The position numbers and the translations under genes were made by a program. Below, one piece after another: positions 2,644 through 12,219 of a stretch of 64,000 bases of DNA. How positions within the stretch are numbered: the stretch's first letter is position 1; every line of letters begins with the position of its first letter. Origin of the DNA: Escherichia phage vb_EcoM_bov11CS3; the sequence record MT884009.2; one strand, given 5' to 3'. The notes below the pieces were generated by a model. That model was not told where the DNA came from. It saw nothing but the letters and a program-made list of their open reading frames with translations, and ran no database searches.

Positions 2644-2853
2644 GATGTTTTCCTCTCTTCTGGTTGTTGTGTGGGCACTTTTGCCCCTTCAAGATAATGT
2701 TACCCCACCCCATGGCAGATGTCAACGGTTTTTATAGTTCTTATATGACAGGCAGGCCCGGTGATTGTCTCCACCCGTCGCCAGGTGCCTGCCGTGTAAT
2801 AAGTATAACAAAAAACAGGACCATAGCAAGCCCTGTTTTGTAGTTTATAAATA

Positions 2854-3045
2854 TTATATTTTTTCGCCTATGTAGTCCGGTCGGTTTTTCTCTGTCATGC
2901 GCTTTAGCAATTCTTGCATGTTACTTATGGCTTGTAGCGTATCCTCTTCCAGACTTGAATCAACATAATCAGGATCGTCTATAACCTTTCTATGATTATG
3001 ATAACGCAGTACCGCCAATACCTTTCTAACTTGTTCGATATTCAT
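2854..3045 (-). CDS. hypothetical protein (63 aa)
   Basis: ATG start; track ORF. Confidence 0.5.
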   Translation of the reverse strand: MNIEQVRKVLAVLRYHNHRKVIDDPDYVDSSLEEDTLQAISNMQELLKRMTEKNRPDYIGEKI

Positions 3046-3057
3046 TTTTATCGCTCT

Positions 3058-3192
3058 TTAAAACAAGGTGCCAACCGTTTCCAATAGATCACTGACTACA
3101 AGGACAATACTGATCAGCACATATCTAACCATAAGGGGGAAGAGCGCCAGCGATCCCGCCACAATCCCCAAGGTGATAATTATCTTTCTCAT
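3058..3192 (-). CDS. small hydrophobic peptide (44 aa), not in ORF track
   Basis: ATG 2 nt after the stop of upstream gene; predicted transmembrane peptide MRKIIITLGIVAGSLALFPL... Confidence 0.3.
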   Translation of the reverse strand: MRKIIITLGIVAGSLALFPLMVRYVLISIVLVVSDLLETVGTLF

Positions 3193-3194
3193 GG

Positions 3195-3479
3195 TTAACG
3201 GTTCACGTAAGTTTTCCCGTTTACGGTGATGGGCAGATCCTCCAGGTCTGGATCTTCCTTAAGGTCGCGAGCAAGTTCACCGCACCGGACACCCTCGAAT
3301 CCGTAGTACTCTGTTGTACCGTCATTAAAAGTTTTAGCGGCAAGGCATAAGCGATAAGTAACCCCGATTTGATTGACGGCATGAATATCCGTTAGATTAA
3401 CCTCTTTTGCCAGCTCTTTAGCCATTACAGGCGCATTAAGTCCAACAACCAGGGCAACCACTGCGATCATCTTTTTCAT
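3195..3479 (-). CDS. small secreted protein with N-terminal signal peptide (94 aa)
   Basis: N-terminus MKKMIAVVALVVGLNAPVMA resembles a Sec signal peptide. Confidence 0.55.
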   Translation of the reverse strand: MKKMIAVVALVVGLNAPVMAKELAKEVNLTDIHAVNQIGVTYRLCLAAKTFNDGTTEYYGFEGVRCGELARDLKEDPDLEDLPITVNGKTYVNR

Positions 3480-3567
3480 TGTGTCTATCCTCTTTCTGCT
3501 ACGTTTAAGGCGGCAACCGCCTGTTTATGCTTTGTTGGTTAATTTTCGGGTATCGGTATAAATTAAA

Positions 3568-3783
3568 CTATGCTGTACGCTCAACTATAACAACGGCTTG
3601 AGGGATCTCACCTTCCACCACTATCAAGGCTTTTTTCTGCGTAATGGATATCTTTACCCGCTTCAGCGTGGCGGTAAAGTCTTTCATTTCGTCGCGTGGT
3701 GTTTTAGTGCAATGCCAGATCTCAGGCTTACCTATTTGCAAGCCGCGTAAAAATTCTGTTTTGCCTGTTTTGTTAGTGATCAT
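3568..3783 (-). CDS. hypothetical protein (71 aa)
   Basis: ATG start; track ORF. Confidence 0.5.
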   Translation of the reverse strand: MITNKTGKTEFLRGLQIGKPEIWHCTKTPRDEMKDFTATLKRVKISITQKKALIVVEGEIPQAVVIVERTA

Positions 3784-3792
3784 TTGCCAACC

Positions 3793-3897
3793 TCACCTGA
3801 TACCGTTGGAAGACAAGATCACATTAGCCATGGTTGCAATCAGGCCAATACCCAGGGCAATAACCAGGATCACCGCATCAATTAATTTCTGTTTCAT
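3793..3897 (-). CDS. small hydrophobic peptide (34 aa), not in ORF track
   Basis: ATG preceded by SD aagagg; sequence MKQKLIDAVILVIALGIGLIATMANVILSSNGIR. Confidence 0.3.
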   Translation of the reverse strand: MKQKLIDAVILVIALGIGLIATMANVILSSNGIR

Positions 3898-3987
3898 TTT
3901 GTTTTCCTCTTCTTGTTCCAGGTGGCGGACCATTCCACCGCCTTATGTATTATGCTTTGTAAGATGGTTGTTTGTTTTCAAACTATT

Positions 3988-4167
3988 TTAACGATAATCA
4001 TCGTACGCTTTATTAACCTGGCGAATATAACATTCAAAAGCCAGATCAATAGATTTATATTCACGGATATACTCACCATAGGAAACCGCATACATTTCTA
4101 TAGCTTCCTCATATGCGAGGAGAATAGAATCCAAGCCTACGATCTCAGTCTTTGCAATAATAGCCAT
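3988..4167 (-). CDS. small protein (59 aa), not in ORF track
   Basis: ATG with SD aagagg; promoter-like TTGACA-16-TAGTAT at 4215-4242. Confidence 0.35.
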   Translation of the reverse strand: MAIIAKTEIVGLDSILLAYEEAIEMYAVSYGEYIREYKSIDLAFECYIRQVNKAYDDYR

Positions 4168-4214
4168 GATTTTTATCCTCTTTGTGGTTGGTGGGGCTTG
4201 CCCCTTTGATTTAT

Positions 4215-4242
4215 ATACTACAGTCTTATATGGTCATGTCAA
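4215..4242 (-). promoter_or_regulatory. sigma70-like promoter (TTGACA-16-TAGTAT)
   Basis: Hexamers read from reverse complement. Confidence 0.45.
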
Positions 4243-4472
4243 CTATTTTCAAAAAATTTTTCTGCTGTAATATTTTTCCCGGTAGGGTTCGCTACTTTCA
4301 AAATTCTATCATGCACCGGACGCCCAAAAGAATAAGCGCCGTACACAGTAAACCAATAATCGCCGTCAGGCTGTACTATTACCGCCGCATATGGTACGCC
4401 TTTTTCGTTTTTGCTGACAAAATAGATCACATTGCCATTAATAGCCTCAGCGCGTTTAATTTGTTCCATCAT
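4239..4472 (-). CDS. hypothetical protein (77 aa)
   Basis: ATG start; track ORF. Confidence 0.5.
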   Translation of the reverse strand: MMEQIKRAEAINGNVIYFVSKNEKGVPYAAVIVQPDGDYWFTVYGAYSFGRPVHDRILKVANPTGKNITAEKFFENS

Positions 4473-4526
4473 GATGATTTACCTCTCTTTATTTTCATAA
4501 TTGGGGCCTTTTCGGCCCCGCCAGGT

Positions 4527-4811
4527 TTATTTATTGATAGCGTGCAGCGGGAAAGGTACGCCAGGTTGATAGATAACTTTTACAACCTCATCAGGGCAAA
4601 AGAAATTGCAGAATTCCCCCTGATAAGCCTCATCCTCTTTCAATTCTTCATCAACATACTCAAAAAAGTAGTCGATGCTTGGATAATCCTGGCCGGGATT
4701 ATAGTCTACCATCGTTAATAACAATTCTTGATCATTCCGTAGGATATGCATACCCGCTTTTAAGTATTTTGCTTCCATTTCCACTACATCGCCAACGGTG
4801 ACAATAGCCAT
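4527..4811 (-). CDS. hypothetical acidic protein (94 aa)
   Basis: ATG start; track ORF. Confidence 0.55.
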   Translation of the reverse strand: MAIVTVGDVVEMEAKYLKAGMHILRNDQELLLTMVDYNPGQDYPSIDYFFEYVDEELKEDEAYQGEFCNFFCPDEVVKVIYQPGVPFPLHAINK

Positions 4812-5037
4812 GATTTTAACTCCTATCTATCCGGTTAATGATTGGGGGGCCGCCCCCACTGACACGTCCTATTATCCATATTGTAGGACTTGATGCAAGT
4901 ACTTCTTTAAAAATTTTTTAAGCGCCTTGGGGCCGCTGTAACGCTAAAATAATAAAGGCCATGCAACCGCATAGCCTTTATGTGATTATATCGCTGCAGG
5001 CCCTGCTAGGGGCCTTATTTTGCATCATTTGCCGGAA

Positions 5038-5337
5038 TTATTCAGAGAAAACATCGTTCACAATGGCTATAACAATGCCGTTCACCTTGTCACGGTCAAC
5101 AATGCACAAATCACCATAGATCATGTGGTAGTCTGGATGATCTTTGACGGAATAGTCGATAAGTGTTTTCTTGTCATCCAGCTTACTAACTTCCATTCTC
5201 ATAACGATATGAGAATCATCAAAGGCATTATTCCGAAAAGTCATAACCTGACCACCAGGGCACCCGGTGATTTCCACCTCCACGCCGTCTACGATCTGAC
5301 CATCAAAGAAATAAAGATTATTAGCCTGGATAAACAT
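5038..5337 (-). CDS. hypothetical protein (about 99 aa; track start 5358 is GTG)
   Basis: Internal ATG with SD aaggag preferred over GTG. Confidence 0.45.
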   Translation of the reverse strand: MFIQANNLYFFDGQIVDGVEVEITGCPGGQVMTFRNNAFDDSHIVMRMEVSKLDDKKTLIDYSVKDHPDYHMIYGDLCIVDRDKVNGIVIAIVNDVFSE

Positions 5338-5381
5338 GATCATTACTCCTTTTTGCACTGATTATTTTAACAGGGTTTAAA

Positions 5382-5425
5382 TTTACTTTATTGATGGCCC
5401 TGGAGTCAAGGCCATCTAAAAATAA
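5382..5425 (-). repeat. 44-bp repeat copy A: promoter-like element with palindrome GATGGCC-N10-GGCCATC
   Basis: Near-identical to copies at 9127-9170 and 9748-9791; minus strand reads TTGACT-N18-TAAATT. Confidence 0.7.
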
Positions 5426-5428
5426 ATT

Positions 5429-5629
5429 TTACAGGCCTACAATCTCTTTAATTCGTTTTACTGCTGCCTCAGCGCCTTGAGGGTAAAAATTATGGTAACC
5501 AATCACGCGAGTGATACTAATCGCCGTTTGATGATCTTCATAATACCCCTTGAATATTTCTTGACCATCAACCAGCACAGCAATTTTTTCTTCTTTTTTG
5601 AAGTTAATAACGCGGATATTGTTGCTCAT
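5429..5629 (-). CDS. hypothetical protein (66 aa)
   Basis: ATG start with SD; hairpin ggggag-tgt-ctcccc in leader. Confidence 0.5.
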   Translation of the reverse strand: MSNNIRVINFKKEEKIAVLVDGQEIFKGYYEDHQTAISITRVIGYHNFYPQGAEAAVKRIKEIVGL

Positions 5630-5730
5630 TTTGTTTCCCCTTCTGGAACTTTGTCTGTGTGGTGGGGAGTGTCTCCCCGTTGATTGTTATTATCCATATT
5701 CAGGACCGGATTGCAACACCCCGGAAGAAA

Positions 5731-5770
5731 AATTTTTTGAAAAAAGTTAGGCCCCCAGGGATCGGGGGCC
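5731..5770 (-). terminator. Rho-independent terminator (minus-strand sense)
   Basis: Hairpin ggcccccagggatcgggggcc followed on the minus strand by a U-rich tract. Confidence 0.55.
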
Positions 5771-5914
5771 GTTATCAGTTACTTACAGAGATAAAATACA
5801 TCCCTACGCCTAACAATATTTCAAGGGCGATGATCTCAAGCCATACCATAACACGGCGCACCTTATCAGCGCATGGCTTATCCTTGGTTGTCATCGTCTC
5901 CCCCTTCCCTCCTG

Positions 5915-6136
5915 TTAGTAGTGACGTGGTTTACAATGGCCCCCAGGAGTCCTATCACCACGCACACCACAAGAAAAATTATCTCCGCTGTTGTTCGATC
6001 CATTGTTATAAAATTCCTCAAGATCAGGCCTGAAAATAAAGCGTTCGTTATTGAATCCGTCACGCCAGGCGGCTGGCTTCAAATCTTCACTAAAGGGATT
6101 AATTAACGTGGCGTTATTTAAACGGCTGGTCCACAT
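5915..6136 (-). CDS. hypothetical protein (about 73 aa; alternative overlapping frame 5878-6063 exists)
   Basis: ATG with SD gagagga; the track start is TTG. Confidence 0.3.
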   Translation of the reverse strand: MWTSRLNNATLINPFSEDLKPAAWRDGFNNERFIFRPDLEEFYNNGSNNSGDNFSCGVRGDRTPGGHCKPRHY

Positions 6137-6486
6137 ATTTTCTATTCCTCTCAAATAGGCGATCCGCCTCAGTTAAACATATCTCATGGGCTTGGTCTCT
6201 GGTTTTAGCCTCATCAAAAACCTGTTGTGCCAGGCTGCAGCGTAGGGAGACTGGAAGATCACTATAATAGGCGTTGACAAACGTTTGTGCGTCATACAGG
6301 TCGGAAAACACTTTACCCTTTCTATTATCGCCCTTGTCAACAATTGCAAGGATAACCAATACAATAGTTGCAACCACTCCCAGGAAAATAGATATAACAA
6401 ACCATAGAAAAGCGGATCTACCTATCTTGCCAGCGATCCAGGCGTTGAACAAGGCAACTACTACAGCCAAAATAATAAATTCCATT
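6114..6486 (-). CDS. small membrane protein (about 123 aa, two predicted TM segments)
   Basis: Internal ATG with SD agagg chosen; the track start 6620 overlaps the upstream gene by 70 nt. Confidence 0.5.
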
Positions 6487-6549
6487 CTATGTACCTCTTT
6501 TGCAGTTCTGTTTAACAATAAGGCGGCAAATATGCCGCCTGTTACCTGA

Positions 6550-6930
6550 TTAAAAATTATCGCCGTAAATCTTTCCGCTTTCTGCCCACACCACCACGCG
6601 GGGCATGTTATCCCATACATCTTGTTTCAGATTTAACGCGTGCAATTCTTCGGTGGTGCTCATACCAGGCACGGGCTGATTGTATACTGCAAAACGACCA
6701 CCTGCATAATCATAGGCCAGAGTTAAATCACACTGAATCATCTTTTTGATCATGGCGTTAAGCATAGCGTTAGCCGCATACTGGTCACGTTTTAAAGGCA
6801 ACTCTTTGATTAGTTTGCGATAGTTTTCGATATGGTCGCACACTGTTTCACGTGGAAGATCTTTCATATCTTCACGGAATGTAACCAGGTTAAACATAAC
6901 GGTGTCAATAGCTTTAGTAGTGTTTTTCAT
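6550..6930 (-). CDS. hypothetical protein (126 aa)
   Basis: ATG start; promoter 6985-7012 and 8-bp hairpin in leader. Confidence 0.55.
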   Translation of the reverse strand: MKNTTKAIDTVMFNLVTFREDMKDLPRETVCDHIENYRKLIKELPLKRDQYAANAMLNAMIKKMIQCDLTLAYDYAGGRFAVYNQPVPGMSTTEELHALNLKQDVWDNMPRVVVWAESGKIYGDNF

Positions 6931-6984
6931 GATGTTTTCCTCTTTGTTTTGTGTGGGGGCAAACGTCTTGCCCCCTTGAGTTTT

Positions 6985-7012
6985 AATATAGCAGGTTTTT
7001 AGGTTATTGCAA
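6985..7012 (-). promoter_or_regulatory. sigma70-like promoter (TTGCAA-16-TATATT)
   Basis: Hexamers read from reverse complement; followed by hairpin gggggcaa-acgtc-ttgccccc. Confidence 0.5.
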
Positions 7013-7020
7013 CACTTTAT

Positions 7021-7644
7021 TTATGAAAAAGTCATCTCACCATATTCATCGACATCAAACCGCCAATCATTGGCCTCGATAAGGCCGATCAGGTTTTCTG
7101 CGGTGAACTGTTCTAGATAGGCCTCCTCCAGGTCTACGTAAACCTTGCGGGATAGCTCCCGTACCGTCTCGGTGATCAGTTCTTCCAGGTCTTCCACTTT
7201 GTTTTCTTGTTTGGCGGTCAGATCTAGCCAAGTGGTATCAATGTACCCGCTTACAGTGTTTTCATGGCTGTAATGGCTGTACTTGTCGCGTTCAACACTG
7301 GCTGATAACTCGCCATCGTGCATTGTGCCGAACAAGTGACGAATTGATCGGAACTTGGTCAGGGCCTTTACTTTACGCAAAAATTTTTCTAAATCCACGT
7401 TTTCAGCACTGATTGACGCGCCGTCACCCTGGCACCAAAAGCCGGACCAATGTACTTCGGTATCTTCAAGGCCGTACTCTGGAAAGATATATTCTTTGTA
7501 GTGTTCAATTACACTTTCTGCAAAAAAGTCATCCCCGCTGTGTTCTTCTCTTTCGCGTACCATTTCAATGGCTTTTTCTTTTTGTTCGTCGGTCAGCACG
7601 TCGAAAGATAAATTGTAACCTGTGGTAATGTTAACGGTGGTCAT
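7021..7644 (-). CDS. acidic protein of unknown function (207 aa)
   Basis: Strongly acidic composition; ATG start; promoter 7702-7729. Confidence 0.6.
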   Translation of the reverse strand: MTTVNITTGYNLSFDVLTDEQKEKAIEMVREREEHSGDDFFAESVIEHYKEYIFPEYGLEDTEVHWSGFWCQGDGASISAENVDLEKFLRKVKALTKFRSIRHLFGTMHDGELSASVERDKYSHYSHENTVSGYIDTTWLDLTAKQENKVEDLEELITETVRELSRKVYVDLEEAYLEQFTAENLIGLIEANDWRFDVDEYGEMTFS

Positions 7645-7701
7645 GATATTTTCTCCTGTTTTCTTTGTTAGTGGCGGTAAGTTTTCCCGCCTGTGTGTTT
7701 A

Positions 7702-7729
7702 ATTATACTTATTGAGATTTACTTGTCAA
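7702..7729 (-). promoter_or_regulatory. sigma70-like promoter (TTGACA-16-TATAAT)
   Basis: Consensus hexamers read from reverse complement. Confidence 0.6.
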
Positions 7730-7979
7730 CACTATTTTTTAAATTATTGTGGCGCAAAATGTTTAAAATCTCCTCAACGTCATCAACACGGCGGCAATTT
7801 TTAAACGCTACCAATTGCCCCATGATTTTAATCACTGGGCGGCCTTGCCAGTGCCCCTGGAGAAAGCGCGCCTTGACTTTATCGGTGGAACTATCACGCC
7901 ACCAAATGGCCTTGTTGTTGCAGTAGTAAAAATTATTCAGGACAACATCAACTTTATCAAAATTTTTTAATTTACGCAT
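7719..7979 (-). CDS. hypothetical protein (86 aa)
   Basis: ATG start; promoter 8011-8038. Confidence 0.5.
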   Translation of the reverse strand: MRKLKNFDKVDVVLNNFYYCNNKAIWWRDSSTDKVKARFLQGHWQGRPVIKIMGQLVAFKNCRRVDDVEEILNILRHNNLKNSVDK

Positions 7980-8010
7980 GGCGTTTACTCCTTTCTCTCT
8001 TTGATGTGGT

Positions 8011-8038
8011 TAGTATAGCTAACCTGTTTAAGATGTCA
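8011..8038 (-). promoter_or_regulatory. sigma70-like promoter (TTGACA-16-TATACT)
   Basis: Hexamers read from reverse complement. Confidence 0.55.
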
Positions 8039-8183
8039 AGCTTTAAATAAAATCACTGTCAATGATATTTTTAACGCCATAAAACGGCCCTAAGCGATGT
8101 TTTCAGGTTAAAGGGGGGCGATTGCATAGGTGGGGCCTTTTTGGCGCTTACAGGGCCAACCAGGGGCGCTATTCGTAGGATAG

Positions 8184-8212
8184 AAATAAAAAGCCCCGCA
8201 CAATGGCGGGGC
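8184..8212 (-). terminator. Rho-independent terminator (minus-strand sense)
   Basis: Hairpin gccccgc-acaatg-gcggggc followed on the minus strand by a U-tract; 3-prime of gene 8221-8418. Confidence 0.65.
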
Positions 8213-8220
8213 GTTGGTTG

Positions 8221-8418
8221 TTATTTGTCTTTATGGCGGTATCGTTCTGCCTGTCGTTCACGTTCCAAAAGTAGGCCAGGCAATTTACGATCATAATGAT
8301 TTCGCCAGATCTTTCCAAATCTTTTTGGCTTATTCAGTTTATTGTTACGCTGGCGTCGTTCCGGCAGCTCTTCGGAATCATGAGATCGCTTTACAATCTT
8401 CTCAAAATTAATCTTCAT
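8221..8418 (-). CDS. small highly basic protein (about 65 aa; track start 8442 is TTG)
   Basis: ATG with SD aagggggg; Arg/Lys-rich. Confidence 0.45.
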   Translation of the reverse strand: MKINFEKIVKRSHDSEELPERRQRNNKLNKPKRFGKIWRNHYDRKLPGLLLERERQAERYRHKDK

Positions 8419-8779
8419 ATATTCCCCCCTTGCTAACTTCAATATTGGCCTGAATAGCCCGGATACGCCGTTTTATAACCTCCTGATCCTTGCAATCATA
8501 TCCCCAAAAGTCTACGATTTTTGCGCCTCCAGCCTTTAGGCGGTATAGTGTTTCTTGCATCTTGTAGGCCGGGATCGGTCGCGGTGTTACCTGGTCGCCC
8601 TTCTCATTCTTGTACTTAATAATGTAGTCTTCATTGTCGTTGAATATCCAAAATGGGTATTCTGTGAGCGCGTTGCTCTCTTTTTCGTTTTTAGATTGGA
8701 TCTTGTTTACAATTAAAGCCGTAGCAATAGCGCCAATAATAAAACTTGCCCCACTGATCATGTTACTTTCTCCTTTCAT
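8408..8779 (-). CDS. membrane-anchored protein (123 aa)
   Basis: N-terminal hydrophobic segment; ATG start. Confidence 0.55.
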   Translation of the reverse strand: MKGESNMISGASFIIGAIATALIVNKIQSKNEKESNALTEYPFWIFNDNEDYIIKYKNEKGDQVTPRPIPAYKMQETLYRLKAGGAKIVDFWGYDCKDQEVIKRRIRAIQANIEVSKGGIYED

Positions 8780-8837
8780 TGTATTGATAAACTATCTTTA
8801 TAGATGGCCCTGCTACCAGGACCACCGAAAAAACAGT

Positions 8838-9083
8838 TTATTTGACGATACCGACAAAACAGATCCCGCCTTCCCCTATATAGGCAATATCGGTAATTTT
8901 ATAATTTGTCAAGATCCGCGTGTTCAGCTCATTAATAAAATCTGTCATCGCGTTGGTGTAGTTGTCTTCCGTGTCTAAGGCATAATCCCAGGTGTAAACC
9001 TTTTTACGTCCGAAGCCTTTTACCATGATACGGGCGCTTTTGGTGTTGGTAGGGGCATAATATTTGGTGATTAGTGCTGCCAT
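8838..9083 (-). CDS. hypothetical protein (81 aa)
   Basis: ATG start; preceded by 44-bp promoter repeat copy B. Confidence 0.5.
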   Translation of the reverse strand: MAALITKYYAPTNTKSARIMVKGFGRKKVYTWDYALDTEDNYTNAMTDFINELNTRILTNYKITDIAYIGEGGICFVGIVK

Positions 9084-9126
9084 GGTTTTAACTCCTATGC
9101 ATTAGTTCAGTGTTAACAGTATAAAG

Positions 9127-9170
9127 TTTACTTTATTGATGGCCCTGGAGTCAAGGCCATCTAAAAATAA
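9127..9170 (-). repeat. 44-bp repeat copy B: promoter-like element with palindrome
   Basis: Minus strand reads TTGACT-N17-TAAACT; palindrome GATGGCC/GGCCATC flanks the -35 hexamer. Confidence 0.7.
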
Positions 9171-9172
9171 TC

Positions 9173-9514
9173 TTACTCGTTTTCTTCCAGCTCCGCAAGC
9201 TCTTCTTTTGCTTCTTCTAGCTCTGTCTGTAATTCCTGGTATTCTTCATCGTCCTCAATATCCAGGCTGTCGATGTAGTCGCTAAATCCGCAGCGGTAAG
9301 CGATAGGATCTAGCTCCTTGAGGATACGCGACGGAAGAAAAGAAATGTTTCCGATCATGATTTCGCCGTAGATCTCGTCTAACCATTCATCATAGTTTTC
9401 GTCGTACTTGTCCTCGTCGATTTCAAAGGTATCGATCTTGTTCTCAAGGTCTGCGATCTGTTTTTTCAGTGCGGCAACCTGAATAGCTTTTTCTGCGGCG
9501 GTCATAGTAGTCAT
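9173..9514 (-). CDS. acidic coiled-coil protein (113 aa)
   Basis: ATG start; promoter 9566-9593. Confidence 0.55.
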   Translation of the reverse strand: MTTMTAAEKAIQVAALKKQIADLENKIDTFEIDEDKYDENYDEWLDEIYGEIMIGNISFLPSRILKELDPIAYRCGFSDYIDSLDIEDDEEYQELQTELEEAKEELAELEENE

Positions 9515-9565
9515 GGTGTTTTCTCCTTTTGTGTGTTCTGGGAAGTTTTCCCGTTTACGGGTTTA

Positions 9566-9593
9566 AGTATACCGATCTAAGTTAGCTTGTCAA
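9566..9593 (-). promoter_or_regulatory. sigma70-like promoter (TTGACA-16-TATACT)
   Basis: Hexamers read from reverse complement. Confidence 0.55.
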
Positions 9594-9713
9594 TTAAAAA
9601 TTTAAGAAAAATTTTGCAAAACTGTTAGCGCTACTCATTAACATTTGCGCCAGGATGTAACCGACAACGCAGACGATAATAGTTACCTTTGTGTATTGGC
9701 GTGTAGTGCCCAT
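9594..9713 (-). CDS. small hydrophobic peptide (39 aa), not in ORF track
   Basis: ATG with SD aggggg; predicted TM segment. Confidence 0.3.
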   Translation of the reverse strand: MGTTRQYTKVTIIVCVVGYILAQMLMSSANSFAKFFLNF

Positions 9714-9747
9714 CTTAAAGCCCCCTTTTTCGCTTAACTGAGATTAG

Positions 9748-9791
9748 TTTACTTTATTGATGGCCCTGGAGTCAAGGCCATCTAAAAATAA
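9748..9791 (-). repeat. 44-bp repeat copy C: promoter-like element with palindrome
   Basis: Identical to copy B. Confidence 0.7.
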
Positions 9792-9793
9792 AC

Positions 9794-10198
9794 TCAATAA
9801 GTTTTTAGTACTTTCCCGTCCAACCTGTCTAGCTGGATCTCAATGGCTGCAGAAAACCTATTATAAACCACGTCGCCCATGGAATCCAACCAGTCTATGA
9901 CGTTATACACTTGCTCTTTGTTCTTGCAGGTCCGGATCCGTTTCATGATGTAAGCCGGATCAATATTGGTACTCTCGTTGGTGTTCCCCTGTACCTGGTT
10001 TGCCGTATTAGCTACATCTTTAATGGCCTTTACCACCACCTGGAAGGGCTTTAAGGTGCCTTTTGCGTTCATCTCACGCGCTTTTGCGGCGCGGTTGTTA
10101 TAGGTTACACAACGGCGGCAAATGTTCACTAAGTGCATGTCAATAATTTTTTCATCGTTTGCCAGTTCGTTCATGATGCGGCGTACGTTCTTATTCAT
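9794..10198 (-). CDS. hypothetical protein (134 aa)
   Basis: ATG start; promoter 10247-10274. Confidence 0.55.
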   Translation of the reverse strand: MNKNVRRIMNELANDEKIIDMHLVNICRRCVTYNNRAAKAREMNAKGTLKPFQVVVKAIKDVANTANQVQGNTNESTNIDPAYIMKRIRTCKNKEQVYNVIDWLDSMGDVVYNRFSAAIEIQLDRLDGKVLKTY

Positions 10199-10246
10199 GA
10201 TCTTTTTCCTTTGTGCTGGCGGGAAACATTCCCGCCTTTTGTGTCT

Positions 10247-11202: not shown

Positions 11203-11467
11203 TTTTTGTACCTCCTCTTCAATTGTTACCTATCCTATAGCATAGGCCCACCAGGTTTGCAAGCCTTCATTCTCTCCTACCTGGTCAGTTAGGCCCTGCC
11301 AGGCTGGCCCCGCCAGGTTGCAGCGGTCAGCGCATCAGGTTAGAAATTTTTTTTTGAAAAGTGTTGACAGCGGCCCCGCCAGGTGGCAAAATATACCTAT
11401 CGAAAGGACGGCAGGCACCGGTGACGGGGGAGACAACCACCGGGGATGGGCGCTGCATGAAATGAGA

Positions 11468-11484
11468 ACGATTATCATTATCGT
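11468..11484. promoter_or_regulatory. Fur-box-like palindromic operator (imperfect)
   Basis: acgattatcattatcgt resembles the GATAATGATAATCATTATC consensus. Confidence 0.35.
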
Positions 11485-11601
11485 CTAAAAATTTATGCAA
11501 AAACTTCTTGCTTTCTTTGTCCTGTGTGTTACTATAATAACAAGCCGGGGCAGTAGGGGCCGGGAGACAATCACCGGGCCTGCCCGTTATTCTGCAAACG
11601 A

Positions 11602-11616
11602 GAATGATTATCATTC
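11602..11616. promoter_or_regulatory. Fur-box-like perfect palindrome GAATGAT-T-ATCATTC
   Basis: Perfect 7-1-7 inverted repeat; 12 of 13 match to the Fur-box core AATGATAATCATT. Confidence 0.4.
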
Positions 11617-11732
11617 AAAATTCTAAATGAGAACTCCTCGCATTTAATAAATTTAATTAGCACGCTAATTACCCTCCGTAACAATTTCCTATAAAATAGT
11701 ATCCACTAAAATATTCCCATATAGAAATTTTA

Positions 11733-11910
11733 AAAATCCATTTCTGAAAACGAAAAATCGATTTCGTCCCCAAAAATTTCAGGTCGAGAGCCGGAACGAT
11801 TTCCAGAAAATCCGATTCAGAAAACGAAAAACAGATCGAGTACTGAGAAATTTATCGAGAAAAATTTTCAGAAAATTCAATCTTTGAAACGAAAAACAGA
11901 TCGAGTACTT
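11733..11910. repeat. Three degenerate 38-bp direct repeats (iteron-like)
   Basis: Copies at about 11733, 11808 and 11873 share gaaaacgaaaaacagatcgagtact. Confidence 0.6.
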
Positions 11911-12219
11911 GGAAAGCTGCGCCACAACTTCAAGGTAGTGGTCGGATTATTACTATAAAAGGTCAAGGGTAAGTGGGGGAAGTTCTAGTAGAAGGGTGTG
12001 AGCATGTGCGGGAAATCTGTAATGGTGGTCTGGAATATGGTGCAGACGATAGGATGAGTGGTTCATCTCGTCGTGCCTGCTCTGAAAAATCCATTTTAGT
12101 TTTCGATCCATTTTCTGATTTTCTAAGGATTTTAAAATATCCTGGTAGGTAAAATATCAAAAGGAGGAAATCCATTTTAGAAATCCTCCTGATCTCTGGC
12201 AACCTGATAACTTAAAATA

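Follow-up and report, generated by a model that had tools for sequence, protein, structure and literature searches.

What keeps a 44-base-pair (bp) sequence identical at three places among the small genes of a phage, and what does that sequence do there? The question is raised by a 64,000-nucleotide (nt) stretch of Escherichia phage vb_EcoM_bov11CS3 (sequence record MT884009.2), referred to below as the window, in which the 44-mer TTTACTTTATTGATGGCCCTGGAGTCAAGGCCATCTAAAAATAA lies at positions 5382-5425 (copy 1), 9127-9170 (copy 2) and 9748-9791 (copy 3). An original prediction, made from this DNA alone, had read the three copies as a family of co-regulated minus-strand promoters with an overlapping palindromic operator. 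Our comparative analysis suggests a broader account. The repeats are probably composite elements that resemble the promoter-early stem-loops (PeSLs) of T4-type phages, and they would combine a likely promoter, a hairpin acting on read-through RNA and a recombination substrate in the early arm of an rV5-like phage. Recombination is the best-supported of these functions across the genomes compared, and was missed by the original prediction.

We propose that the parts would work together as follows. Identical copies are substrates for homologous recombination, which moves small gene cassettes. As double-stranded DNA, copies 1-3 would also be sigma-70 promoters, from which transcription would resume some 7 nt further downstream, at about 5373, 9118 and 9739 (minus strand). 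The hairpin would be present only in transcripts that read through from an upstream promoter, and in such read-through RNA it would most likely be a processing signal of the T7 RNase III type or a 3'-end-stabilizing signal, not an efficient terminator.

A repeat family that folds as a two-tier hairpin

The whole-genome scope of the analysis was set by the Vequintavirus vb_EcoM_bov22_2 (MT884010.2; 135,884 bp), which is 100% identical to the window over positions 5000-10200, at the same coordinates (megablast). About 120 rV5-like genomes match this region at 90-98% identity. The exact 44-mer occurs three times, as had been predicted, with no further occurrence in the 64-kb window or the remaining 72 kb. 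Similarity among the three copies reaches 49 nt, beyond the 44-mer itself. A fourth, diverged copy with 65% identity to the repeat, which the original prediction had overlooked, lies at 8790-8838. The motif GATGGCC-N10-GGCCATC has four matches at two or fewer mismatches, against 0.12 expected. A covariance model of the repeat family scores copy 4 at 68.5 bits and finds no further members in the 136-kb genome beyond the four, and Rfam has no match over any element at E<=1. A scan of IMG/VR with CTTTATNGATGGCCCTG returned two Vequintavirus contigs only. Scanning the same collection with the bare palindrome gave 120 unrelated single matches and was uninformative, and a genome-wide search for hairpins of at least 18 bp gave 360 matches, too unspecific a result to judge whether the layout is enriched.

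All genes in the repeat region are on the minus strand, and all four copies occupy intergenic gaps of 76-91 nt in this minus-strand arm of small genes. Copy 1 (5379..5429, minus strand) lies between gene 5429..5629 and gene 5038..5337, copy 4 (8787..8841, minus strand) between gene 8838..9083 and gene 8408..8761, copy 2 (9124..9174, minus strand) between gene 9173..9514 and gene 8838..9083, and copy 3 (9746..9794, minus strand) between gene 9794..10198 and the open reading frame (ORF) 9597..9716. The prediction that each copy sits 3' of one gene and upstream of the next agrees with the spacing. The GC-rich hairpin starts 11-12 nt past the stop codons of genes 5429..5629, 9173..9514 and 9794..10198 for copies 1, 2 and 3, respectively, and the next start codon follows the end of the copy by 43-44 nt in copies 1 and 2 and by 31 nt in copy 3. 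The start codon after copy 3 belongs to the ORF just named, which is unannotated, encodes 39 amino acids and matches PHROG 16391.

In the sense intergenic RNA, the whole unit (49-55 nt) is an imperfect palindrome, and all four copies fold as one two-tier hairpin of 20-23 bp. The lower stem is AU-rich and has 10-13 pairs, with a 5' strand that begins at or inside the stop codon of the preceding gene. Above it, after a 2-nt bulge on the 5' side (UA; UC in copy 4), comes the GC-rich upper stem, which has 10 pairs (Watson-Crick or G·U), arms GAUGGCCUUG/CAGGGCCAUC and one non-canonical A·A or C·U position at the base. The upper stems span 5393-5416, 9138-9161, 9759-9782 and 8803-8826 in copies 1, 2, 3 and 4. 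In the window genome the apical tetraloop is ACUC in copies 1-3 and GUAG in copy 4, and the 3-nt internal loop on the 3' side is AAU, or UAU in copy 4. The 7-nt arms that the original prediction had placed around the -35 hexamer are present, but pairing is not limited to them, since it spans the whole unit. The promoter hexamers map onto defined parts of this fold. TTGACT straddles the boundary between the upper 5' arm and the loop, with three bases on each side. The -10 hexamer, TAAACT or TAAATT, supplies the 3' strand of the lower stem, at whose base the repeat also begins and ends.

The sense folds are stable compared with dinucleotide shuffles, at -23.6 kcal/mol for copy 1 (z-score -5.8), -21.1 for copy 2 (-4.9), -25.1 for copy 3 (-6.9) and -28.2 for copy 4 (-8.3). 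Antisense folds, calculated for copies 2 and 4, are weaker at -12.2 to -15.0 kcal/mol, with copy 4 at -12.2.

We examined the fold by comparing copies from 17 genomes, comprising the window genome, 13 other GenBank phages and three stretches of two IMG/VR contigs. These yielded 32 distinct copy sequences, of which 30 are of equal length and were aligned without gaps, with the two-tier structure imposed. Paired cells make up 96.5% of this alignment; shifting the 3' partners by 1-3 columns lowers the figure to 35-56%. In the lower stem, four pairs are altered on both sides, in 18 cells, and none of 500 column shuffles attains the observed pairing or covariation score. Between copies 1-3 and copy 4, the lower stem changes from A-U to U-A, from U-A to G·U, from U-A to C-G and from G-C to A-U, and the upper stem carries three one-sided changes that preserve pairing, two of which yield G·U. 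C-G and U-A also alternate among the orthologues of copy 4. Where the -10 hexamer has T in copy 1 and C in copies 2 and 3, the facing base of the other arm is A and G, respectively. One G·U pair is constant throughout the alignment and a second throughout copies 1-3, with three more contributed by copy 4. Pairing that is possible solely on the antisense strand is confined to about seven cells (A·C, C·A) in the lower stem of copy 2. Copy 4 is kept in all genomes examined, with the full fold and no -35 hexamer. This pattern of substitution speaks for a helix in the sense mRNA as the target of selection, and against an operator with symmetric half-sites.

Cassette gain and loss at the repeats

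Copies 2 and 3 bound a facultative cassette on the minus strand (9174..9745; 572 nt) which, together with one copy of the repeat, makes up a unit of 621 bp; copy 2 is the left partner of the corresponding insertion or deletion (indel) and copy 3 the right partner. The cassette holds a gene for 113 amino acids (9173..9514) whose stop codon lies inside the repeat, the TTGACA-16-TATACT promoter of that gene (9593-9566) with a hairpin in the 5' untranslated region (5'-UTR), and the 39-codon ORF 9597..9716. Seven proteins were scanned against PHROG, two from the cassette and five from neighbouring genes, and all of their matches are to families of unknown function. The cassette is absent from the phages ime, magaca, ECP26, ECP32 and phiWec189 and from one IMG/VR contig, each of which has a single, chimeric copy, flanked on the left as copy 2 is and on the right as copy 3 is. 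BLAST blocks from the cassette-less genomes stop at 9173 and resume at 9746, and their overlap is exactly the 49-nt repeat. The blocks meet in the repeat, so the 621-bp unit was gained or lost with the repeat as the junction. Among 118 GenBank records, 110 have the cassette junction and six the chimeric junction, one of these six probably being an assembly artefact. This record, MG065644.1, has a chimeric junction at its start (26-144) and a normal copy-2 junction at its end (142550-142668), and its assembly was probably broken or mis-joined at the repeat.

The cassette did not come or go only once. On both flanks, the cassette-less genomes are nearer to cassette-bearing genomes than to each other, with ime and magaca closest to WalterGehring or Gotham, and ECP26 and ECP32 closest to S127. 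Since the cassette-less genomes are not one another's nearest relatives, at least two independent gains or losses are indicated. The left and right flanks also have different nearest neighbours, an indication of crossovers at or near the repeats. Some variants are common to the copies of one genome and absent from their orthologues, namely loop ACUU in copies 1 and 2 of rV5 and loop ACAC in copies 1 and 2 of an IMG/VR contig. Such sharing within genomes suggests gene conversion between copies.

Exchange has also reached beyond the Vequintavirus genomes. Phage KKE7M (Stephanstirmvirinae, Justusliebigvirus) holds window positions 9121-9594, that is, the cassette gene and a repeat, at 94% identity, at a site where its relatives have a different gene for 71 amino acids. 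The left junction is within the spacer of a resident TTGACA promoter. The right junction is within AATAAAGTAAA, the -10 region, so placed that the element is joined to the -10 region of a resident promoter and the -10 stays in register. Judged by sequence, the cassette gene and the repeat have crossed the subfamily boundary with both junctions inside promoter sequence.

Several further observations concern gene exchange in this arm. Three single-gene islands of KKE7M (1659-1938, 7588-7781 and 8965-9298) match window positions 3570-3848, 3986-4179 and 6564-6897 at 76-92% identity, a sign that small early genes have probably passed from one subfamily to the other more than once. A tblastn search with a neighbouring gene of 81 amino acids found its homologues outside Vequintavirus in unrelated phages, at no more than 46% identity. 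BLAST comparison of relatives shows that indels are abundant throughout the small-gene arm. Phage rV5_ev146 lacks window positions 2767-8272 and 9702-10211, and with them copies 1 and 3; the junctions there overlap by just 10-13 nt, which shows that the 49-nt repeat is not needed for every indel of this arm. An extra gene of 351 nt is found at window position ~5025-5036 in ime, magaca, ECP26 and phiWec193 and is absent from the window genome, and the hairpin at 4998-5015 (AGGCCCTGCTAGGGGCCT), which adjoins that site, resembles the upper stem of copy 4. Among the database records, 17-22 of the MG0656xx series labelled as 'Campylobacter phage' (host Campylobacter jejuni) are 94-100% identical to rV5-like or phi92-like phages of E. 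coli, and their host labels look doubtful.

Promoter and RNA readings of the element

Read on the minus strand, copies 2 and 3 give TTGACT-18-TAAACT and copy 1 gives TTGACT-18-TAAATT, each matching 9 of 12 consensus positions, and the -35/-10 reading of the original prediction was thus recovered in all three copies. The -35 hexamers lie at 5409-5404, 9154-9149 and 9775-9770 and the -10 hexamers at 5385-5380, 9130-9125 and 9751-9746 in copies 1, 2 and 3. A T-rich stretch, TTTATTTTTA, precedes the -35 in these copies and is directly downstream of, or overlaps, the upstream stop codon. The 17 genomes have about 40 copies of types 1-3, and every one of them retains TTGAC, except for a TTGATA in one IMG/VR contig. 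The sixth base of the -35 can be T, A or C in these copies, and the base that follows is variable too. The copy 4 loop varies at its second, third and fourth positions; the best promoter-like match of this copy is 8 of 12 with a 19-nt spacer.

The context of these hexamers points in the same direction. The -10 context AAGTAAACTA is also part of a canonical TTGACA-16-TAAACT promoter match at 10274-10247. The Justusliebigvirus UAB_1 has a TTGCAA-16-TAAACT arrangement with no hairpin (8 of 12, below the scan threshold), in which AATAAAGTAAACT supplies the -10 and the last part of the spacer. PhagePromoter calls copies 1 and 2 of phage Gotham as promoters, and other intergenic gaps of the small-gene arm carry strong promoter matches at the corresponding place. 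We regard sigma-70 promoter function of copies 1-3 as rather probable on these grounds. PhagePromoter also made an 8-nt call beside copy 4 in Gotham, which prompted the idea of a T4-late-type promoter; we rejected it, the motif being just CTATAAAG, a part of the lower stem. As a separate observation, GC-rich hairpins that resemble 5'-UTR hairpins, often of the form GGCGGGAAA...CCCGCC, lie between the -10 and the ribosome-binding site of many early genes. Examples in the window are at 10218-10236, 7667-7686, 6955-6975 and 5660-5682 (plus-strand coordinates of minus-strand genes), and the motif is found in KKE7M and UAB_1 as well.

A number of points weigh against the composite reading. Matches at 9 of 12 positions arise by chance about 22 times per 10 kb on both strands, or in an estimated 5% of 49-nt elements, and copies 1-3 share descent, so that their promoter match counts as one observation. 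The spacer is 18 bp, compared with 16-17 bp in strong promoters nearby. All of the loop variation fits an unconstrained loop equally well, and the conserved edges of the repeat give no independent support to the -10, since they coincide with the base of the hairpin. Most of the double changes in the stems come from one old split, between copy 4 and the rest, and therefore represent few independent events. In Gotham, copy 3 (5127-5170) has a 5-nt deletion (GGCCC) that removes part of the upper stem and shortens the spacer between -35 and -10 to 13 nt, and a copy decayed in this way is dispensable there. At three positions where RNase III has a preference (distal-box 1, C-G; proximal-box 1, U-A; proximal-box 3, G-C) the hairpin departs from the consensus. 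The GenBank record of rV5 annotates no promoter or terminator at the repeat sites; the rV5 genome paper reports 33 promoters and 20 terminators in total. In the literature searched, an incomplete library, we found no study of transcription starts, RNA 3' ends or cleavage for any Vequintavirus.

What the hairpin does in read-through RNA can be approached from the layout of the transcription unit. We propose a unit that runs from the promoter at 9593 through the 113-codon gene, copy 2, gene 8838..9083, copy 4 and genes 8408..8761 and 8221..8418 to a canonical terminator at 8212-8193. A terminator scan detected this terminator and another nearby at 5770-5750 but flagged none of the four elements, and no T-run follows any of them. 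The bases 3' of the upper stem are A-rich (AAUAAAG or UAUAAAG), with the T-run on the 5' side instead. The earlier statement that the copies are not canonical intrinsic terminators was borne out, and we discarded that candidate for all four elements, each of which lacks a U-tract. Copy 4 has no good promoter match and the genes downstream of it, 8408..8761 and 8221..8418, have no better one of their own, so the hairpin there is unlikely to be an efficient terminator and substantial read-through is implied.

The closest counterparts of the fold are processing sites of phage T7. RNase III substrates typically comprise two helical turns, with an 11-bp helix closed by a tetraloop as the minimum (PMC1540722). 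Where there is an internal loop, just one strand is cut and the RNA keeps a protective hairpin at its 3' end; the second pair of the distal box must be U·G, and G-C at proximal-box position 2 prevents binding (PMC1540722). The T7 site R1.1 has a GCAA loop and the pairs A9:U30, U12:G27 and C13:G26 (PMC1540722), and T7 promoters adjoin RNase III sites, for example phi3.8/R3.8 and phi6.5/R6.5 (PMC6938266). The repeats have the corresponding length (20-23 pairs, including the 10-pair upper stem with its tetraloop) and, in all four copies, an internal loop of the strand-limiting kind (2-nt 5' bulge, 3-nt 3' loop). Distal-box position 2 is U·G in copies 1-3 and C-G in copy 4. Proximal-box position 2 is A-U in copies 1-3 and G·U in copy 4, and proximal-box position 4, by the presumed cut, is not G-C. 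For comparison we folded the T7 early sites R0.3, R0.5, R1, R1.1 and R1.3 at coordinates that we take to be correct, R1.1 alone having been confirmed in a paper. At these presumed coordinates the sites fold with upper stems of about 9-13 bp and a tetra- or pentaloop, and four of the five have a 3-nt 3' internal loop above the lower stem, while R1.3 has only single-nucleotide bulges. Natural T7 sites, such as R0.5 at its assumed coordinates, likewise deviate from the box consensus. The covariance model of the repeat family finds no T7 RNase III site, and there is no sequence link to T7.

On this analogy, and given the T7-like layout, the U·G and A-U pairs at two box positions and the pairing of promoters with RNase III sites in T7, we tentatively favour a processing or 3'-end-stabilizing role for the hairpin; attenuation seems improbable. 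One sequence of 49 nt may then lie under two constraints, as an RNase III-type intercistronic processing hairpin in RNA and as a sigma-70 promoter in DNA. We consider this specific combination possible but doubtful. If it is true, cleavage of each read-through transcript would leave the upstream RNA ending in a 3' hairpin at the very point where the next transcript begins, and an insulated unit of gene, processing site and promoter would move between phage subfamilies by homologous recombination.

The alternative that survives best, although we think it rather unlikely, is a purely RNA element. In this account the repeat is an intercistronic processing or stability hairpin, either of the T7 RNase III type or a protective 3' hairpin, and the TTGACT-18-TAAACT match arises incidentally from a GC-rich stem set between AU-rich arms that complement each other. 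The promoter-less copy 4, with its full fold, compensatory changes and retention in all genomes examined, is what such an element predicts, as are repeat boundaries at the base of the lower stem, a -10 difference matched by its opposite base, and a layout equal to that of T7 RNase III sites (PMC1540722). The chance of roughly 5% estimated above for a 9-of-12 match in one element also counts in its favour. A match of incidental origin, however, would not readily account for a TTGAC that is nearly invariant while the two adjacent loop bases vary, particularly as the copy 4 loop varies at positions 2 to 4. Nor would it account for the same -10 context in hairpin-less promoters, for a right junction in KKE7M that joins the element to a resident -10 region in register, or for the placement of the element where other gaps of this arm carry promoters.

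A non-canonical terminator or attenuator of the upstream gene, with or without a promoter, is distinctly less likely. This function has been proposed for PeSL stem-loops, one of which cut the expression of a downstream lacZ as strongly as the rrnB T1 terminator (PMC2839356), and a stable GC-rich hairpin 11-12 nt past a stop codon would suit it. The missing U-tract, the A-rich strand after the upper stem and the silent terminator scan argue against it, as does the read-through needed by the two genes past copy 4.

Less likely still are co-regulated promoters in which GATGGCC-N10-GGCCATC around the -35 is a palindromic operator for a dimeric repressor or activator. Three identical promoter-like copies with an exact 7+7 palindrome around the -35 do invite this view, and their identity would permit co-regulation. 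The sigma-70 half of the original prediction accordingly stands, at the level of sequence, but its operator half does not fit a pairing that runs over 20-23 bp in two tiers with compensatory and G·U changes. As DNA, the arms of copy 4 differ (GGTGGTC versus GGCCATC) and pair only through G·U in the sense RNA, and the lower-stem pairs co-vary rather than keep a half-site sequence. The half-site centres are 17 bp apart, or about 1.6 helical turns, a spacing that is unusual for a dimeric helix-turn-helix site. No regulator is known, and the seven proteins scanned match no function-assigned PHROG. We rejected the palindromic operator, given that symmetric half-sites were not found and that the sense fold is far stabler than the antisense fold. 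Least credible of all is a DNA-level element, a cruciform or single-strand hairpin read by a recombination, replication or nuclease protein with the RNA and promoter features incidental, which a long imperfect palindrome with recombination junctions inside it would suit, but the wobble asymmetry favours the mRNA sense strand, plain 49-base identity explains the junctions, and other indels in the region use unrelated overlaps of 10-13 nt.

Relation to known systems

The composite reading draws its closest parallel from the PeSLs, which are known from the T4-type phages RB49, phi1, PST and nt-1 (Arbiol et al. 2010, PMC2839356; Comeau et al. 2014, PMC4122927). A PeSL comprises an upstream stop codon in an AT-rich stretch, a sigma-70 promoter and a stem-loop that sometimes lies over the -35, followed by a Shine-Dalgarno sequence and start codon, and recombination between PeSLs removes or inserts the flanked orphan gene and leaves a chimeric element (PMC2839356). 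The Vequintavirus repeats likewise lie between small genes of unknown function in an indel-rich region. Copies 1-3, though not copy 4, have an AT-rich stop region with a sigma-70-like -35 and -10. The stem-loop overlaps the -35, as in some PeSL subclasses, a Shine-Dalgarno sequence and start codon follow the repeat, and the 621-bp indel, with its two or more events, leaves a chimeric repeat. Copies 1-3 show all of the sequence-level and comparative features of PeSLs, whose experimental marks are measured promoter function, termination or attenuation by the stem-loop, and mini-circles that are encapsidated.

There are also clear differences. The Vequintavirinae belong to another phage family, and we claim no homology to PeSLs. 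The genome has four copies instead of dozens, and the stem is not of the polyG/polyC type. In the Vequintavirus element the two-tier hairpin of 20-23 bp spans the whole unit from stop codon to -10, there is no U-tract, and one copy is promoter-less.

The likeness to T7 RNase III sites is one of arrangement. In both cases the sites are intercistronic in the polycistronic early mRNA of a coliphage, and measure about two helical turns. A short asymmetric internal loop, which has 3 nt on its 3' side, separates the lower stem from an upper stem that is GC-rich, 9-10 bp long and closed by a tetra- or pentaloop. The repeats share with R1.1 the U·G at the second distal-box position and the A-U at proximal-box position 2. 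Sites within one genome resemble one another, and promoters adjoin RNase III sites in T7 (PMC6938266). The two have no sequence homology, and the repeats differ from the T7 sites at proximal-box positions 1 and 3 and distal-box position 1. The promoter in the repeats is of the host type and lies inside the hairpin rather than beside it. With intrinsic terminators the repeats share a stable GC-rich hairpin a few nucleotides after a stop codon; they differ in having no U-tract, in a T-run that is 5' of the stem and in the genes after copy 4 that lack a promoter match of their own.

We found the repeats described neither in the rV5 genome paper's text nor in the rest of the literature searched, an incomplete library. 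The kind of element has already been described in T4-like phages, and its occurrence in an rV5-like phage is newly recognized here. If confirmed, PeSL-type shuffling is not peculiar to T4-like phages and extends to rV5-like and phi92-like coliphages, which are widely used in therapy and biocontrol. It would also account for part of the differences in gene content among the 118 matching GenBank records, and it shows the exchange of a cassette between two subfamilies with junctions inside promoters. In practical terms, the repeats flag sites where engineered inserts could be gained or lost, and they can break assemblies, as in the GenBank record that begins and ends at them. They also offer a short candidate for a combined promoter and RNase III site.

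Two other parts of the window contain repeated or palindromic sequence of a different kind. Long near-perfect palindromes of up to 26 pairs (-30.6 kcal/mol, on both strands) lie at 637-727, in the unannotated first 1.4 kb. The stretch at 11204-12005 is gene-free and holds three 57-nt direct repeats (11720-11915, spaced 65-74 nt) and a set of 20-nt repeats (11460-11644); Tandem Repeats Finder shows just a short 12-nt array there. The map in the rV5 genome paper has a box marked 'non-coding'.

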